A DNA stretch of 16,387 nt from a virus. Lineage: Duplodnaviria > Heunggongvirae > Uroviricota > Caudoviricetes. Under the pieces are notes generated by a model. It saw only the letters and a program-made list of their open reading frames with translations. It did not search any database and was not told the origin of the DNA. Each line of letters starts with the position of its first letter. Position 1 is the stretch's first letter. A program made the translations under genes and the position numbers. Below, piece by piece: positions 2,388 to 16,387 of this stretch. The stretch is from the IMG/VR virus record IMGVR_UViG_2711768071_000023; one strand, 5' to 3'.

Positions 2388-4045
2388 ACCCCATCAAACG
2401 CCGCAAGCCGCTCTTTGTGGCTGTCGCTCATATCAAATGCAAATTCCTCATGCTCTGCCTGGAATGTGCCAAACGCCATCAGCGCCGCAACGCTCGGGTC
2501 TATCTTGTTGGATGATTTTTTCTTGTTCGGCTTGATATTGGCGTTCGCGTCACTCTGCATCACAACATTACTCATTGACCAGGCCAGCACCGGATCGCCA
2601 CGATGCACAATCACCTTCCGGTTAACAAAAACTTCGAACGATTTCGCCGCCGGACTGAAACGAAGGTATGTTTGCGGGAACGGCTCCACCTCAAATCCTG
2701 CCCCCTGTAGCTGCGTCCTCAGGTGCGTGGCGTTCCATGTATCGAAGCCCACCAGCCTGATATTGAAATTCTCTGCATCCGCCATGATGTCATCACGGAT
2801 ACGGTCATAATCAATGCAGTCACCCGGTGTTGTGCGTATCCAGCCCGCCTTTACCCACTGGCGATAGATGGCGCGGTTTTTATTGGCGGGGTTCTGTAGC
2901 TGAAATTCCGGCAGATAGTGACGGGAAACCAGCATAATCTTTTTACCGACCGGAAAGGCATAGCACACGCTGGAAATATCGCTGGTTGATGATAAGTCCA
3001 GCCCCGCGTAGCACTCCTGCCCGTATAAATCCGCCTCCGCGAACGTTCCGGCGCACTCCGCCCATGCACCGTTACCCATCCACGGCGTAGCCCCCTGACA
3101 CCAGATATTGAATCGCTTGGTGAGCATTTCCACCCACTGCGACGGAATACCCCGCGCTTTCTGGATGGTTGAGGCCAGTTTTTCACGATCGACGGAAACA
3201 TCGATATTGGGATTCGCCTTTATCCACATCGCCGGATCGTCAACCTCGCTTTCATCATCCAGCTCGTAAATCAGCACGAACATGGATTCGTTCACCTCTT
3301 CACCATCCAGTATCTGGCAGCAATAGTCATAGTGTTGTTTACAGGCTGAAACAACGTTGCTCCCCGATGTGGTGATGGCAAATAACAGCCCCTCCGGACG
3401 CGCCCCCATTCCCAGTTCAAGCGCGGAATAAACCCCGTTGTCAGGGTGCAGGTGATATTCATCCACAATGGCAAGACTCGGGTTTGTACCTTCAATGGTT
3501 GCCGCTTTTGCTGCCAGTGGCTTTAACAGGCTGTTGGTTTTCGGGTGTATCACCTTGTGTGCCTGAATATTTACCCGCTTTCGTAACGGTCGGGATAAAA
3601 GGCACATCTGACGCGCATCATCAAACACGATCCGCGCCTGATCACGACTCACGGCGGCGGTGTAAATATCCTGCTGCCCGTTTTCCATAACCAGAAACCA
3701 GTTAGCCAGGATAGCGGCGACCGTGGATTTGGCATTTTTTCGCGGCACTTCAATGAATGCGCTGGTGTATTTGCGCCGTCCGGTGGCCTTAACCTTAAAG
3801 CCCAGGATGCACGCAAAGGCGAACTGCTGCCACGGCTCCAGCTCAATGGGGCTACCGCGCATTGCGCCTTTTACGTGCGGACACACCCTGGAAAAGGCAA
3901 TAAACCGCTCCACGACCTCCGGATCGAACGTGTAAAGGGGGTTTTCAAGGTCAGAAAAATACCGTTTAACGGCCTGTTTCAGTCGTTTACAGGCCGTAAT
4001 TTTGCCGTTTTTTACGCCTTCTGCGTACTCATGCCAGGCGGTCAA
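2384..4045 (-). CDS. terL: Phage terminase large subunit (553 aa)
   Basis: Long ORF whose translation has terminase ATPase and nuclease domain character. Lies directly downstream of terS with a 17-nt overlap. The ORF-track start at 4045 is a TTG codon, so the exact start is uncertain. Confidence 0.88.
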   Translation of the reverse strand: MTAWHEYAEGVKNGKITACKRLKQAVKRYFSDLENPLYTFDPEVVERFIAFSRVCPHVKGAMRGSPIELEPWQQFAFACILGFKVKATGRRKYTSAFIEVPRKNAKSTVAAILANWFLVMENGQQDIYTAAVSRDQARIVFDDARQMCLLSRPLRKRVNIQAHKVIHPKTNSLLKPLAAKAATIEGTNPSLAIVDEYHLHPDNGVYSALELGMGARPEGLLFAITTSGSNVVSACKQHYDYCCQILDGEEVNESMFVLIYELDDESEVDDPAMWIKANPNIDVSVDREKLASTIQKARGIPSQWVEMLTKRFNIWCQGATPWMGNGAWAECAGTFAEADLYGQECYAGLDLSSTSDISSVCYAFPVGKKIMLVSRHYLPEFQLQNPANKNRAIYRQWVKAGWIRTTPGDCIDYDRIRDDIMADAENFNIRLVGFDTWNATHLRTQLQGAGFEVEPFPQTYLRFSPAAKSFEVFVNRKVIVHRGDPVLAWSMSNVVMQSDANANIKPNKKKSSNKIDPSVAALMAFGTFQAEHEEFAFDMSDSHKERLAAFDGV

Positions 4046-8380: not shown

Positions 8381-8573
8381 GAAGGTTTTCTCGTATTGGT
8401 TAAGATTCAGGACGTGAAACCAACACGGAGGGAGCGCCGCCCGACACTCTCGGCATCTCGCAGATCAACCCGGCATCGCGCAGGGGGTCAGGCGGCATTG
8501 TGGCGGCTCACGTCTGAGTGCCACACGCCAACATATACATAAAAATCAGTATGTAAACATCAGCCAGAATCAC

Positions 8574-8602
8574 CGAACAACCTGGAACAACCACGAACAA
8601 AT
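8574..8602 (-). promoter_or_regulatory. Three 10-bp-phased TTGTTC repeats upstream of the capsid operon
   Basis: Plus strand reads cGAACAAcc tgGAACAAcc acGAACAAat, i.e. TTGTTC x3 on the coding (minus) strand at exact 10-bp spacing. Sits just downstream of the 8615-8644 terminator and about 190 bp upstream of the capsid ATG. Confidence 0.45.
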
Positions 8603-8614
8603 AATTTACAAAAC

Positions 8615-8644
8615 CTGAAAAAAGGCCCGGAAAAAATCCGGGCC
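8615..8644 (-). terminator. Intrinsic terminator after the replication/accessory operon
   Basis: Perfect 8-bp stem GGCCCGGA / TCCGGGCC (8624-8631, 8637-8644) with a 5-nt loop, followed on the minus strand by TTTTTTC. Lies 10 bp past the stop of the 8654-8902 ORF. Confidence 0.7.
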
Positions 8645-10178: not shown

Positions 10179-10401
10179 CTGTTCACCTTTTGAGATTTTC
10201 CCTTTTTATTCATAATGTTAAGGGGTGAACAGTTTCACAAAAACTATTCACCAACTGTTCACCACTGTTCACCCTTAAAGCTCAATAAATAATCAAAAAG
10301 GTGAACAGTGAATAGTTTGGTGAACAGTTCACAAATAACTGTTCACCCTATAATGTACTGATATAAAAGATATTTATAACAGGGTGAACAGTGGTGAACA
10401 G
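10179..10401. repeat. Iteron cluster, candidate replication origin
   Basis: Nine perfect copies of GGTGAACAG in both orientations (GGTGAACAG at 10224, 10300, 10319, 10383, 10393; CTGTTCACC at 10179, 10255, 10265, 10339) plus degenerate copies, several pairs at 10-bp phasing. An AT-rich stretch (10350-10380) is embedded. Lies immediately 3' of the primase-helicase gene. Confidence 0.75.
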
Positions 10402-10414
10402 TTATTCCATAAGT

Positions 10415-12940: not shown

Positions 12941-13142
12941 GTCTCACCCCCTGAATATTCGCATTAATCATTCCGGCACGTTCTGCGAGTTCCTGTAATG
13001 ATTCCCTTGTTGCGACAATGGCTTCATCTGGCAGGTGGTAATTACACACCACGCGACCTTTATCCACATTGACCAGTAGCTGCCCGGTAAATTTCTCACG
13101 AAACTGAACGCGGTTAAGGTCGGTAAGTGACAGGTTAATCAT
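12933..13142 (-). CDS. Small protein, paralog A of a tandem pair (69 aa)
   Basis: SD AGGGGG. Paralogous to 12728-12940. 8-nt overlaps on both sides. Confidence 0.55.
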   Translation of the reverse strand: MINLSLTDLNRVQFREKFTGQLLVNVDKGRVVCNYHLPDEAIVATRESLQELAERAGMINANIQGVRHA

Positions 13143-13338
13143 GGTGTTCCCCCTGGCGAATACGGGCAGCGAATACCATCACGCAGCCATCAGGAGATTG
13201 CTGACGCGCTTCCTGTTCGCTGGTGGCCTCAATGGTAATCACGCGCGGTTGTGCCGTGCTCAGGGCGATAAAACGCCAGATGTATTTATTCAGGTTGTGC
13301 GAGTCCCGCCCTTGCGGGTGTGTGGTATGATTTCTCAT
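13135..13338 (-). CDS. Icd-like small protein (67 aa), first gene of the leftward early operon
   Basis: In-frame ATG at 13338 with SD GAGGT inside the 473-codon track ORF. Translation MRNHTTHPQGR...VITIEATSEQEARQQSPDGCVMVFAARIRQ resembles the Icd-like proteins of P4-type prophages as I recall them. Family assignment is from memory only. Confidence 0.5.
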   Translation of the reverse strand: MRNHTTHPQGRDSHNLNKYIWRFIALSTAQPRVITIEATSEQEARQQSPDGCVMVFAARIRQGEHHD

Positions 13339-13446
13339 AGCTACCTCGATACTCTCGTTATCGTTGGTGGTTAGAAGCCCCGTTACTGCTCCAACAGTGC
13401 GGGGCTTCGTCGTTTCAATTGCTGAATTGCATGTATCAGCACTTGT

Positions 13447-13500
13447 GGTATTCACATTACATTTAGGTGAATACCATTTCAAGTCTTTTTTGGTATTCAC
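13447..13500. promoter_or_regulatory. Operator-like repeats in the divergent control region
   Basis: Perfect inverted repeat GGTATTCAC-N11-GTGAATACC (13447-13475) plus a third direct copy TGGTATTCAC (13491-13500). Lies between the minus-strand Icd-like start (13338) and the plus-strand regulator start (13544). Confidence 0.5.
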
Positions 13501-13543
13501 TTTTGTATTACACTGCATCCCGTTATTAATGGGAGGTGCAAAC

Positions 13544-13849
13544 ATGTCCAGGAGTTCTGTTAACAATAAGTCACAGCAACTGAATGCCAGATTTCCACAT
13601 GAAGTAGTGAGTGGCATTGAGGCATCCCTACAGCCAGGGGAAACTAAAGCGAATTTTATAGTTACGGCTGTACGCGGTGAGATCGCCCGGCGCCAGGCAG
13701 AAGGAAGTGGAGAAAATCCCCTGGTTTCTTCGCTCGATGCACTGGCGCAGGTGGAAAAACTCGGAATCAAAGCCGCCGAGGAGATCGGGCAGCTCGTCAC
13801 TGTCGCACGTGAAGAACTCCAGCGCCGCAAGACCAAAGAACCAGAGTAA
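13544..13849 (+). CDS. Ribbon-helix-helix (Arc/MetJ-type) DNA-binding protein, candidate island repressor (101 aa)
   Basis: ATG at 13544 preceded by GGGAGGTG at 5-nt spacing. N-terminus QQLNARFPHEVVSGIEAS...ANFIVTAVRGEIARRQ fits the RHH beta-strand plus two-helix pattern. One of only two credible plus-strand genes inside the element. Confidence 0.6.
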   Translation: MSRSSVNNKSQQLNARFPHEVVSGIEASLQPGETKANFIVTAVRGEIARRQAEGSGENPLVSSLDALAQVEKLGIKAAEEIGQLVTVAREELQRRKTKEPE

Positions 13850-13906
13850 TCACCATCAGCGCCGTGGTGTAAGGTATTACGGCGCATTGCTATGCAGGAC
13901 AACACA

Positions 13907-14080
13907 ATGACCGATAAAGAATTGACCAAAACATTATCACCGGCACGGAAAAGACGGCGCAGAAAGATAGAGCATGAATCAGAAAGATTCGCGCCATGTG
14001 CTTTTGCCCTTGAGCAATTCCTTAAAGAGTACAGGGAAAAGCGCTCATTGCAGGTATGGCAACGAACTGAACCAGACTGA
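13907..14080 (+). CDS. Possible small basic protein (57 aa)
   Basis: ATG at 13907 (MTDKELTK...) in the same transcriptional direction as the RHH gene. Weak SD. No family recognised. Confidence 0.3.
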   Translation: MTDKELTKTLSPARKRRRRKIEHESERFAPCAFALEQFLKEYREKRSLQVWQRTEPD

Positions 14081-14256
14081 TTGCATTGCCCACCAGCCGC
14101 AAATGTGGCATTGTTGGCAATGCTCATGCGTTGGGGATAACGTGTAGCTTGTGTCGAGGGGCCACCGTAGCGGGTGGCCTTTGTTTTGCCCGTTATTCGG
14201 CAATTGTGGCGCTTCTCCACATGGTTGATATAATCCCACTGCTCAGATTCATTTTT

Positions 14257-14556
14257 TGCGCAGTAGGTTAATTGTTCACAAAGGCGCTCCGGCAACGGGG
14301 CGCTTTTTGTTTTTATTAGTTTGTAGAAACCTGACTCAGAGATAATGCTCATATTCTGATTGCCGTCAGGGGTGTAAGTTAAATTTACTCCCTTTTTATC
14401 ATCAAACATCTGCAACGCTCTGGCGTTAACAATATTGGTTTCACTCCCGCCAGTAAGGCCGGAAATAACCGGAATAATTTCGGCAAAATTTTGCAGATTC
14501 TGTTTTTCAGGACGAACGAAGCCCCGCCCTTGTTCGGGAGAATATCCAGTATTCAT
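14257..14556 (-). other. Possible coding segment: N-terminal ~100 codons of the 473-codon ORF, 3' end unresolved
   Basis: ATG at 14556, 52 bp downstream of alpA. Residues ~60-90 (TPDGNQNMSIISESGFYKLIKTKSAP) resemble the core of Bro-N-type domains. The frame has no stop until 13135 and runs antisense through the RHH gene and the 14284-14314 terminator. Confidence 0.3.
14284..14314 (+). terminator. Intrinsic terminator on the plus strand
   Basis: Stem GCGCTCCG / CGGGGCGC (14284-14291, 14296-14303; 7 Watson-Crick pairs plus 1 GU) with GCAA tetraloop, followed by TTTTTGTTTTT (14304-14314). Confidence 0.6.
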
Positions 14557-14608: not shown

Positions 14609-14797
14609 TTAGTGAACTGCCTCGCAGCTGTCCTTCCATGCCAGAACTTCGGATAAAGACCAGCCAACGGAACGACCGCCCAGCTTACGCCGTGATGGGA
14701 ATTGTCCGGCTTTTTCCAGGCGGTACCGACATGAGCGGCTCAGGCCTGTAAGTTGCTGACATTCTTTTTCACGTATAAAGCGATCTGTGCTTAACAC
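14609..14797 (-). CDS. alpA: AlpA-family transcriptional regulator (62 aa), GTG start
   Basis: Translation MLSTDRFIREKECQQLTGLSRSCRYRLEKAGQFPSRRKLGGRSVGWSLSEVLAWK matches the AlpA family HTH pattern. GTG start at 14797 preceded by AAGGGGGAA. Confidence 0.8.
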   Translation of the reverse strand: MLSTDRFIREKECQQLTGLSRSCRYRLEKAGQFPSRRKLGGRSVGWSLSEVLAWKDSCEAVH

Positions 14798-15070
14798 AAT
14801 TCCCCCTTTGTTGTTTCTTAAAGAGTCATTGGGTGGATTATTGGGTTGTGTCGGATTGTGTCAGGGTGTTTGTGGAATGGCAAACACTGGCGGCGGTCGT
14901 TTTACAGAAGCAGGGGGAATGAGAATAAAAACTCTTTTAATTCATTATGATGCAAAGGCATAAAATTTTACTTTTACGCCTTTTTTACATATTTTTAAGA
15001 GTGATTCGCCAGTGTATAAAAAAACAGTACACCTATAAAAATCAAATGGTTATTACGATGGCTGATTTTT

Positions 15071-15130
15071 AACCCGTTGTTCCATTTTGTTCCTTGTTGT
15101 TCGTCGTTGTGTCTCGTTGTTTCACGTTGT
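15071..15130. repeat. Six direct GTTGT repeats at exact 10-bp phasing between int and alpA
   Basis: Consecutive 10-mers aacccGTTGT tccatTTTGT tccttGTTGT tcgtcGTTGT gtctcGTTGT ttcacGTTGT. The same motif family recurs at 14846-14862, 8575-8600 and 1585-1600. Confidence 0.65.
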
Positions 15131-15157
15131 CCGCATCCTGAAAAATCGCAAAAAAAA

Positions 15158-16387
15158 TTATATTTCTCTGGCTATTGGCAATGTGGTTACGTTTTCATGT
15201 GTTCCCGCCAGTATCCCTAACCGCTCCGTCCACATATCCAGCGCGTCACGTTTCGCATCCAGATAACGGGAATGGTTATAGACTCGTTGCATCCCTGGCA
15301 TCTGATGACCTGTAAGCTGCTCCACGACGTGAGGATCCACGCCTAAATCGTTCAGCATCGTTGTAAAGGTGCGCCGGATGTCATGCAGTGACCAGTGAGG
15401 GTGTTTTAGCCTCCTGTGCGCTAATCTGCCGTACTGCGACACGCTTGTTTCCTGTTTCACTTCCCCCAGCAATAAGCCCGTGTGCCTGTTCTGCTCCACC
15501 AGCTGCGTGACGAACGGCAGTATTGCTTCCGGTATGGGCCGGAATATTGCCACCTTCGTTTTGCTGTGTTCTTTCGGCACGGTCCAGAGCATTTCGGTAA
15601 AATCCCACTCGCTGATCTCCGATAACCTCAGTTCTACCGTCCGGCATCCGAAAACAATCAGGAGGCGGATTAGTGCGACGTAGTAAGGGGAAAATATTTT
15701 TTTGTCCAGTGCCTGCAATAATTCGCCAAGTTCTTTGGTGCTTAAGACACGCTCGCTTATATCCGGTTTTTTCCCAACGTCCGCCACACTCATATCATCA
15801 AGAACGTTGCTGATTGCATAGCGCCGCCTCCGGCAGAACTTAAGCGCCTGTTTGCACGTCTGTAGCAAGAATCCGGCAGTAACAGGCGTTCGCTTTGCCA
15901 CCTGGTCAAAACAGGCCAGCCAGTGCCGTAGCTCGCATTTATCCAGCGGCATAGCACCAATGTGCTGTATTACGTGATTATTAAGGCGCTTTTTCAGGGC
16001 GGCATAATCCACGCGGTTTTCCTTTACGTAAGACTCAAGCCAGTAGGTAAGCGCATCGCCAACCGTTACGGGCTTTAACGCTTTCTGTACGGTGTAATTC
16101 ATCTCATGACGTGGATTTTTCCCCTCAGCAAGCCAAGCGCGACACTGTGCCGCTTTTTCCCTGGCAGCTTTCAGACTCAGATCAGGATAATTTCCCAGCT
16201 TAATCCGTTCCGGTCGTGCTCCCCTTCCCGTTCCGGCCCTGTAGGTGAAATACCAGGTTAAAAGGCCGCTGGTTGAATGCCTGACGCTCAGGTTTCCACC
16301 GTCATTAAGAAAGGCTGTTTTTTGGGCGGGTGTGCCGTTGATTTTCCTCAGCTGTGTATCGCTCAGTTTGTTAAGTGCTCTGCTCAT
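15158..16387 (-). CDS. int: Tyrosine integrase, P4 type (409 aa)
   Basis: ATG is the last three bases of the window; stop TAA at 15158-15160. N-terminal arm-binding-type region (LSDTQLRK..., GLLTWYFTYRAG...) and C-terminal catalytic region with HDIRRT and a tyrosine near the C-terminus. Transcribed inward, so its att site lies beyond 16387. Confidence 0.9.
   Translation of the reverse strand: MSRALNKLSDTQLRKINGTPAQKTAFLNDGGNLSVRHSTSGLLTWYFTYRAGTGRGARPERIKLGNYPDLSLKAAREKAAQCRAWLAEGKNPRHEMNYTVQKALKPVTVGDALTYWLESYVKENRVDYAALKKRLNNHVIQHIGAMPLDKCELRHWLACFDQVAKRTPVTAGFLLQTCKQALKFCRRRRYAISNVLDDMSVADVGKKPDISERVLSTKELGELLQALDKKIFSPYYVALIRLLIVFGCRTVELRLSEISEWDFTEMLWTVPKEHSKTKVAIFRPIPEAILPFVTQLVEQNRHTGLLLGEVKQETSVSQYGRLAHRRLKHPHWSLHDIRRTFTTMLNDLGVDPHVVEQLTGHQMPGMQRVYNHSRYLDAKRDALDMWTERLGILAGTHENVTTLPIAREI

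Follow-up and report, generated by a model that had tools for sequence, protein, structure and literature searches.

Helically phased TTGT sites at the att arms, alpA control region and capsid operon of a capsid-forming PICI: candidate AlpA boxes

A family of short units, TTGT(T/C)C, spaced one helical turn apart, is found in the att arms, the alpA control region and the promoter region of the capsid operon of a capsid-forming PICI. The family is real, confined to the island and conserved. The units are candidate boxes for the island's own AlpA and would link excision, feedback on alpA and transcription of the capsid operon; we put the probability of this reading at about 0.55. Among the three binders that have been proposed (AlpA, the integrase and a helper-phage activator), AlpA appears to be the best fit on comparative evidence. 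The sites are most likely a conserved but familiar kind of control element, with AlpA as the putative ligand. A first-pass annotation of this DNA had described one phased family shared by these same regions, and that description is borne out; the interpretation placed on it is, taken as a whole, partly supported.

The island and its groups of sites

The window, by which is meant the whole stretch of 16,387 nucleotides that was analysed, contains a 15.1-kb capsid-forming PICI (cf-PICI) satellite between phoQ and roxA. phoQ occupies the left end (1-1461). The att core, AAATATGTCC, is at 1460-1469 on the plus strand, as mapped against complete relatives and the empty attachment site of K-12, which reads AAATATGCCC. 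A second copy of the core is found at the roxA-side junction, 172 bp past the right end of the window, and the island measures 15,099 bp from core to core. The element has what marks a cf-PICI, an int-alpA-primase module together with its own capsid, protease, portal, HNH and terminase genes; its body matches capsid-forming PICIs, and its gene order is that of annotated relatives and of the EDL933-type element. Its int-alpA stretch shares 99.7% identity with 1377930-1379822 of E. coli CFT073, the location of EcCICFT073, the prototype Gram-negative PICI.

The genes that matter here are all on the minus strand. The int gene (15158-16387), whose start codon ends the window, encodes a tyrosine integrase with an N-terminal Arm-DNA-bind_3 domain of the P4 type. 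alpA (14609-14797) encodes a 62-residue protein of the Pfam Phage_AlpA family, an excisionase-type winged helix-turn-helix and the proposed binder of the repeats. The primase gene (12229-10415) lies downstream of int. After an intergenic region comes the operon for capsid, protease, portal, connector, HNH and terminase (8380 to 2384).

Five groups of sites share an exact 10-bp register, and all four groups claimed at the outset were found where they had been placed. The largest is a six-unit array at 15076-15135 (nTTGTTyS-nn in plus-strand notation, GAACAAC when read along int and alpA transcription). It lies 28 bp past the int stop codon and precedes a conserved hairpin; the alpA start is 280-335 bp downstream. 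In order, its units are GTTGTTCCAT, TTTGTTCCTT, GTTGTTCGTC, GTTGTGTCTC, GTTGTTTCAC and GTTGTCCGCA. Six GTTGT repeats had been described at this place; the spacing and the location stand, but the count is five GTTGT (15076, 15096, 15106, 15116 and 15126) and one TTTGT (15086). The invariant core of the array is TTGT, present in six copies, one each 10 bp, from 15077 to 15127.

Some further features surround the array. The hairpin, at 14954-14983 on the minus strand between the array and the alpA promoter, was read from the alignment; it is probably an int terminator or a leader structure, because the substitutions found in it keep pairing (G.U) only in minus-strand RNA. Phased T-tracts occur close by, at 14972-14997. 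A weak alternative alpA promoter downstream of the array, TTTATA-N17-TACACT near 15039-15011, is a possibility noted by eye and was not called by the promoter scan.

The proximal pair, TTGTGTC-gga-TTGTGTC (14845-14864, the copies 10 bp apart), overlaps the predicted core promoter of alpA. This promoter, TTGCCA-N17-CACAAT with a TG extension (14855-14883, minus strand), comes from the promoter scan and from allele alignment: in six diverged alleles the -35 hexamer TTGCCA is invariant, and the -10 varies as (C/A)ACAAT. The pair had been described as lying "just upstream of alpA". The motif and its coordinates (14846 and 14856) are correct, but the copies sit over -10/+1 of the conserved predicted promoter. 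Such a position would suit repression better than activation.

Upstream of the capsid operon, a block at 8574-8613 reads GAACAAC, GAACAAC, GAACAAA and an in-phase TTTACAAAA. The three GAACAA copies reported there were confirmed at 8575, 8585 and 8595, and a fourth in-phase ACAA is found at 8608. The promoter scan predicts a capsid-operon promoter at 8530-8557 on the minus strand (TTTACA-N16-TATGTT), and from its start the four units are centred at about -55, -65, -75 and -86. A hairpin followed by a T-run at 8624-8644, read by eye and not called by the scan, closes the operon that lies upstream of the capsid operon.

The remaining groups are in the att arms. On the phoQ side, at 1584-1613, there is a triplet of AAACAAC (1585), GAACAAA (1595) and GACACAA (1605). 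The earlier description, two AACAA copies at the phoQ-proximal end, had the place right and was one phased unit short. The fifth group, ACAAC, GAAACAAG and GGAACAAG, is in the int-side arm just past the right end of the window, and a weaker second block, GAACAA, GAAACA and GAAACG, is found nearer the core in the same arm; these int-side groups were read in the CFT073 locus (L001, 17959-17985 and 18022-18047). The family is not confined to the arms: distances from the att core are 1.3-8 kb for the array, the proximal pair and the capsid block. With respect to transcription, its units are found in either orientation, and they are also present in the untranscribed arms. In repeat searches, they were the sole repeated element common to the alpA spacer and the att arms.

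Phasing and conservation of the sites

It is the spacing of the units, not the abundance of the word, that departs from chance. A scan for excess frequency had been suggested as a check on the motif, and by this measure the word itself is at shuffle level: with at most one mismatch, GAACAAC has 58 matches in the window, compared to 52 ± 7 in 1000 dinucleotide shuffles. Overall word enrichment was dropped as an argument, only the phasing being non-random. Same-strand pairs of GAACAAC at exactly 10 bp number 6 where 0.09 are expected, and none of the 1000 shuffles reaches 6. Nearly all of the short spacings between matches are multiples of 10. In a motif-free search of the window for any 4-mer phased at least four times, only the array and the capsid-upstream block were recovered; 5-mers phased at least three times add only a phased T-tract and the iteron-like repeats after the primase gene.

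The second part of the frequency check came out in favour of the sites. In six related loci (217 kb), which include long chromosomal flanks, phased runs of at least two units number 27 in 70.6 kb of island versus 1 in 146.5 kb of chromosome, and runs of at least three number 10 versus 0. In all of these islands the runs are found at homologous positions. For sites that are phased in this way, confined to islands and conserved, the sensible reading is the one first suggested, a protein that occupies one face of the DNA.

Conservation is concentrated in the core of the units and in their register. The int-alpA spacer alleles, down to about 75% identity, all retain five or six units in register. 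For the 18 distinct array units in diverged alleles, TTGT (positions 2-5) carries 1.7-2.0 bits and the spacer positions 0.2-0.3 bits, and both the TTGT core and the register persist where the flanks have diverged. In one relative (L008), the proximal pair has lost a single unit through a deletion of exactly 10 bp. Upstream of the capsid operon, a block of 39 nt made up of TTTTGTAAATTA and then three units matches that of an EDL933-like cf-PICI at 38 of 39 positions, compared to 43% identity over 270 alignment columns for the rest of the intergenic region. EcCICFT073 and the EDL933-type cf-PICI bear the same boxes. The conservation of the core and the 38/39 match at the capsid block are counted in favour of selection acting on the sites.

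An island with another int/alpA type gives a comparison. A cf-PICI at the fis site of E. coli, with a different Int and a different AlpA and a homologous capsid operon, has no such boxes anywhere. Because of this, the binder would be encoded by the island and not be a host factor. A host protein that binds direct repeats, such as a response regulator of the OmpR/PhoB type, is a very unlikely reader of the units, and so is the absence of any reader, with the repeats acting through intrinsic curvature or as a CA-rich RNA tract in a 3'-UTR or leader. Response regulators do bind direct repeats of 10-11 bp, and some arm units (TGAAACA) are, we assume, similar to OmpR sites. The array also lies in the transcribed 3' region of int, before the hairpin and near the phased T-tracts at 14972-14997. 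But phased runs are essentially absent from the 146 kb of flanking chromosome, and the fis-site element lacks the units in the same species. An RNA role fits poorly with units that occur in both orientations and in untranscribed arms, and exact helical phasing is a property at the level of DNA, not RNA.

Integrase, helper phage and AlpA as binders

Each att arm contains a second kind of repeat. The 12-mer ATTAACTACACC is doubled at 1544-1567 on the plus strand, and an identical pair is found on the other side, 22 bp outside the int start codon and past the window. The centres of the pairs are 91 and 142 bp from the att core. In both arms, the pair is followed 16-18 bp on by a TTGT-type triplet in the same orientation (16 bp on the phoQ side). 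A similar layout occurs in other elements that carry other doubled words. The annotated 'arm sequence repeats' of P4 attP are doubled 12-mers, TTGGGGGCAT, with centres 134 and 75 bp from the core. In helper-embedded PICIs (HE-PICIs), TGTATTGC is doubled with a 12-bp period and co-oriented in both arms, 132 and about 81 bp from the core (Tommasini et al. 2023; PMC10111431). The fis-site cf-PICI has GTTTATACA twice, and in the distant AlpA-bearing islands the doubled motif is different in each. The ATTAACTACACC pairs are probably integrase arm sites because of this layout and because the doubled 12-mer covaries with the integrase family, which the TTGT/TGTTyC units do not. Together the pairs would supply four sites, the number needed by an Int tetramer whose subunits have Arm-DNA-bind_3 domains. 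A doubled 12-mer accompanied by a phased triplet also makes a practical signature for delimiting the att arms of AlpA-bearing islands.

The presence of these pairs bears directly on the integrase as a candidate. If the TTGT units were themselves arm-type sites for the N-terminal Arm-DNA-bind_3 domain, constitutive Int on the arms, the array and the alpA and capsid promoters would be both the recombinase and the missing repressor of the island. Several features are consistent with this. The triplets in both arms adjoin int and are phased at 10 bp, a spacing shared by the tandem P' arm sites of lambda; islands with three different AlpA alleles and with several core sites have them unchanged; and the proximal pair has a repressor-like position. 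Repression of its own promoter is also known for P4 Int and for IntS of KplE1 (for KplE1, PMC2951348). However, the doubled 12-mers already provide four arm sites in the layout of P4, HE-PICIs and fis PICIs. TGTTyC pairs persist in distant AlpA loci where both the doubled motif and the Int N-terminus are quite different. Short, degenerate and cooperative-looking units are atypical of arm sites, and the TTGT units are neither restricted to the arms nor matched to the integrase family. In addition, the alpA promoter fusion of EcCICFT073 has low activity when Int is missing and responds to AlpA (PMC6092414), so that Int is not needed for the off state. The integrase arm-binding domain, one of the candidates named at first, is disfavoured by the separate, P4-like set of 12-mers that changes with its family, and we consider it distinctly unlikely as the reader of the phased units. 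Islands at other core sites (smrA/abgR, yifB and tqsA) were considered as a way to discriminate between Int and AlpA; they were uninformative, with homologous arms that keep both repeat families.

AlpA itself has the features of a repeat-binding excisionase. It belongs to PF05930 (Phage_AlpA) with an E value of 3e-18, and a single-sequence AF2 model (pLDDT 88.5) is a winged helix-turn-helix. In Foldseek comparisons, its best solved match is the GIsul2 excisionase 8c3t (TM 0.78/0.85), followed by MerR-type domains, RdfS, TorI and BldC. A literature search found no paper that cites 8c3t. RDFs (recombination directionality factors) such as lambda Xis, 186 Apl, P2 Cox and P4 Vis recognize direct repeats with a spacing of one helical turn, at promoters as well as at att, and proteins of this type bind such repeats cooperatively, head to tail (PMC7498355, PMC11963761). 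The island has the corresponding parts: 10-bp direct repeats, an arm site beside the integrase arm-type sites and a gene for a winged-helix protein of the RDF type.

Published work on AlpA points the same way in part. Overexpression of AlpA in EcCICFT073 without a helper leads to int-dependent excision and replication, and the expression of an int promoter fusion is unchanged by AlpA (PMC6092414). Since AlpA activates the alpA fusion and drives excision, sites for it should exist in the int-alpA spacer and, if it is an RDF, in the arms as well. In GIsul2, overexpressed AlpA makes mobilization readily detectable, which the authors credit to more circular intermediates. PICMI AlpA is necessary and sufficient for excision and does not alter transcription of its element. 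In E. coli PICIs the protein is termed a master activator; in other elements it is termed an excisionase. No mapped operator was found in the accessible literature on AlpA. The int-side arm boxes fall in the int upstream region, and the fragment limits of the published int fusion are not given (PMC6092414).

Distant islands provide a broader view of which sites accompany AlpA. These loci were recovered by AlpA homology, with a sampling of 20 loci and 19 proteins in which recombinants are thin. A weight matrix derived from the array was too narrow for them, as it insists on TTGT at a position where they have CTGT. Of 13 distant AlpA-bearing loci, 8 have GTT(T)C pairs spaced exactly 10 bp apart no more than 260 bp upstream of int, and the other 5 have none. 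Their density in the 13 loci is 10 per 3.4 kb near int versus 12 per 117 kb elsewhere, about 29-fold higher, for a test motif that was picked post hoc after inspection. An unbiased tally of phased 4-mers gave GTTC, TGTT, TTCA and GTTT as the top words, with 5 loci each versus 0.003-0.17 in control windows. The excisionase-type fold, the format of the repeats and the TGTTyC pairs that accompany AlpA in distant islands together rank AlpA first among the candidates.

Whether the motif follows the RDF has a mixed answer, in that 8 of the 13 distant loci have TGTTyC pairs, yet closer islands carry arrays of other words. In islands at the clpS/cspD site (L010/L034 and L035), where AlpA is 56-60% identical, both arms have perfect GAACAA triplets, unchanged from those seen here, and the array position holds other phased words, either GATATT three to four times or CGAACTT twice. 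The putative DNA-contact residues of AlpA in these islands are largely conserved. Either the specificity of AlpA is conserved and another factor occupies the arrays, which is possible, or the arm boxes do not belong to AlpA.

These other-word arrays are counted against AlpA as the reader. The same holds for the repressor-like position of the proximal pair, given that the published effect on alpA is activation, for the EcCICFT073 int fusion that AlpA leaves unaffected (PMC6092414), and for the unchanged transcription of the element with PICMI AlpA.

The different arrays also bear on the third candidate, a protein of the helper phage. The array, and perhaps other promoter-linked copies, might be the landing site for such a protein, which would turn on alpA, while the arm copies would be separate RDF sites that happen to share the word. 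We regard this as unlikely. Other alpA modules with other array words and unchanged arms are what would be expected if the arrays were tuned to different helpers. Induction of alpA requires a helper phage, not SOS (PMC6092414). In EcCIMP1, a helper still induces the alpA promoter fusion in a delta-alpA strain, which indicates that a helper-responsive, AlpA-independent element exists upstream of alpA. There is a precedent in P2, where Cox binds 10-bp-phased Cox boxes upstream of P4 PLL, the promoter that drives the AlpA homologue Vis (PMC7498355). Phased boxes upstream of the vis/alpA gene of a satellite are likewise present in the island. In P4, three tandem 10-bp units, CCACTTAAAG, TCATTTAAAG and CCACTTAAAG, lie upstream of vis; these are the Cox boxes of the established P2/P4 literature.

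Against a helper protein, the six-unit array has the word and the phasing of the arm triplets, and any reader of these triplets would bind it too. The same block is found at the capsid operon, conserved with the alpA/int type. The known inducers are also diverse: lambda and phi80, with HK106 and HK446 for EDL933. lambda was the helper checked, and the Xis region of its attP has no phased TTGT cluster. Its Xis sites are unlike the array, with one weak match at X2 (score 6.3), and the array was rejected as a mimic of these sites (X2 = TATGTTGTGTTTT). A helper-encoded activator, as had been suggested for the motif, is tenable for the array alone in view of the P2 Cox/P4 PLL precedent; it leaves the arm and capsid-operon copies unexplained.

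Known systems and a possible induction circuit

Cox boxes of P2 and the Apl operators of 186 are the closest parallels to the sites. In these systems, too, short and degenerate sites follow one another as direct repeats once per turn, in rows of three to seven, and they occur at promoters as well as in an att arm. Their reader is a small winged-helix excisionase with a second role in transcriptional control, which binds them head to tail (PMC7498355). Boxes upstream of P4 PLL even allow P2 Cox to activate the promoter of a satellite. The differences are several. The presumed binder in this case is a satellite protein of the AlpA family (PF05930), the boxes are in both arms instead of one, and a set is found upstream of a capsid/terminase operon. 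Cox and Apl mainly repress, whereas the published net effect of AlpA on its own promoter is activation.

P4 resembles the island in its integrase family, its attP layout and the doubled 12-mers of both arms. Its vis gene occupies the equivalent regulatory position in the satellite, and Vis is an excisionase as well as a regulator of the late and int promoters (PMC11963761). In contrast, Vis is only 42% identical to AlpA, and a reading of the P4 sequence showed no phased TTGT array, either in the arms or in front of vis.

For TorI of KplE1 (CPS-53), a structural neighbour of AlpA, the int-side arm holds two blocks with five RDF sites between them, three of the sites forming one block with 2-nt gaps; their core, GTTCG, is similar to TTGTTCG, and the sites overlap the int promoter (PMC2951348). 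In this system, sites are described only at the int-side attL, TorI represses int, copies at a late operon are not reported, and the protein is of a different sequence family (PMC2951348).

The HE-PICI motif TGTATTGC has been proposed to bind either Int arm domains or AlpA; it was reported only in HE-PICIs, and the paper describes no 10-bp-phased units (PMC10111431). Its counterpart in the island is the ATTAACTACACC pair of each arm and not the TTGT family. In the accessible PICI literature, no description of 10-bp-phased TTGT units was found. By analogy, the arrangement would work like Cox boxes, Apl operators, TorI sites and Vis sites on an attP skeleton that is that of P4. What is new is that a candidate operator of the Gram-negative PICI master switch is pointed out; the kind of element is well known.

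With AlpA as the reader, a simple course of induction can be suggested. A helper signal would lift alpA transcription, and AlpA would then fill the boxes, one monomer per unit, head to tail along a single face of the helix, with neighbours cooperating and bending the DNA. At the att arms, an AlpA filament beside the ATTAACTACACC pairs may shape the excisive intasome together with Int. In the int-alpA spacer, the six array boxes and two promoter boxes would mediate AlpA feedback on alpA. At the capsid/terminase operon, AlpA could switch on the packaging genes from the boxes, three to four in number, that lie at about -55 to -86. The sign of the AlpA effect at each promoter is one that we infer. 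Through a single site family, AlpA raised by a helper would trigger excision and capsid production together, which would amount to the compact induction circuit imagined at the outset.

A wider and decidedly more tentative proposal is that AlpA-family excisionases across Proteobacteria have a single, ancient 'AlpA box' code in common, with TGTTyC recurring at each helical turn beside doubled integrase arm sites. In this PICI lineage it might have been copied from the arms to the alpA control region and the capsid promoter, and a 62-residue excisionase would be the whole induction circuit. If this were true, AlpA alone would cover excision, self-amplification and late-gene activation, and shared boxes would let unrelated islands or satellites cross-activate or cross-excise one another.

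The sites are concrete, mutable targets in two prototype elements, EcCICFT073 and the EDL933-type cf-PICI. They allow AlpA to be tested as both an RDF and a transcription factor and helper input to be separated from AlpA feedback at the alpA promoter. They also open the question of how a capsid-forming satellite times its capsid operon.

Other known repeat systems were considered and set aside. Replication-origin iterons do not fit sites that are dispersed over arms and promoters instead of clustered at an initiator gene, and separate iteron-like repeats occur past the primase gene, at 10242-10273 and 10378-10402. The antiterminator binding element (ABE) of the Pseudomonas AlpA was also rejected. 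P. aeruginosa AlpA is an eight-helix, Q-like protein, and its element has GGGACG between -35 and -10. The name that it shares with the 62-residue AlpA is a coincidence; the two proteins are unrelated.

The array and the alpA region

The window's array has six TTGT-core units in exact 10-bp register (15076-15135). In most alleles, a perfect 16-bp palindrome, CAGTATGCGCATACTG, separates the int stop codon from the array (columns ~36-52 of alignment A3); this palindrome, on the int-proximal side, is listed for L006, L007, L008 and L037. An extra repeat unit takes its place in the window and in the related locus L005. In islands at the clpS/cspD site, the phased arrays directly after the int stop codon are built from different words, either GATATT x3-4 or CGAACTT x2 (L034 2278-2303, L010 12509-12534 and L035 ~2283-2315). 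These accompany different AlpA alleles, and the GAACAA triplets (TTGT-type units) are retained in the att arms.

The array lies ~221 bp, or ~21 helical turns, from the proximal pair, the two TTGTGTC units (14845-14864) that overlap the predicted alpA promoter. Between array and promoter, a hairpin, AAAGGCATAAAA/TTTTACGCCTTT (14954-14983), is kept in all alleles. Its pairing survives substitutions, through G.U pairs, in the minus-strand transcript only, and it probably serves either as an int terminator or as a leader structure of alpA. The same interval contains three T-tracts (TTTTA) with 10-11-bp phasing (14972-14997), a spacing that suggests intrinsically bent DNA.

Immediately downstream of alpA is a minus-strand ORF of 473 aa (13135-14556) for which no Pfam match was found; in the close relatives L002 and L005 its counterpart is annotated as truncated or pseudogenised. 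Modules with an additional gene between int and alpA occur in L013-L016 and L036. Just upstream of alpA these loci carry a GC-rich hairpin followed by a T-run (GCCCTCGAAC...CGAACGAGGGC TTTTT), which may act as a terminator or attenuator and includes two CGAAC words 10-11 bp apart.

Doubled sites in the att arms

Both att arms carry a doubled ATTAACTACACC as a co-oriented tandem. One pair is at 1544-1567 in the window, and the second, read in L001 (17916-17939), lies 22 bp outside the int start; measured from the core, the pairs are centred at 91 and 142 bp. Variant forms, AGTGACTACACC and ACTGACCACACA, are found in relatives. Since the layout is the same as that of the P4 arm repeats and of the doubled motif of helper-embedded PICIs, the ATTAACTACACC pairs are, by analogy, probable integrase arm-type sites.

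Other phased repeats and hairpins

Directly downstream of the primase gene, tandem repeats of 10-11 bp form two sets, AACTGTTCACC x3 and AACAGTGGTG x2.6 (10242-10273 and 10378-10402). They look like replication-origin iterons, and their word differs from the TTGT family. The upstream replication/accessory operon ends at a minus-strand GGCCCGG/CCGGGCC hairpin with a T-run (8624-8644), immediately before the phased GAACAA boxes of the capsid operon (8574-8613); a scan for consensus terminators did not call this hairpin. L010, a non-capsid-forming relative, has four GTCAC units with 10-11-bp phasing upstream of its small-terminase gene (3052-3087), possibly a site used by another factor for packaging or regulation.
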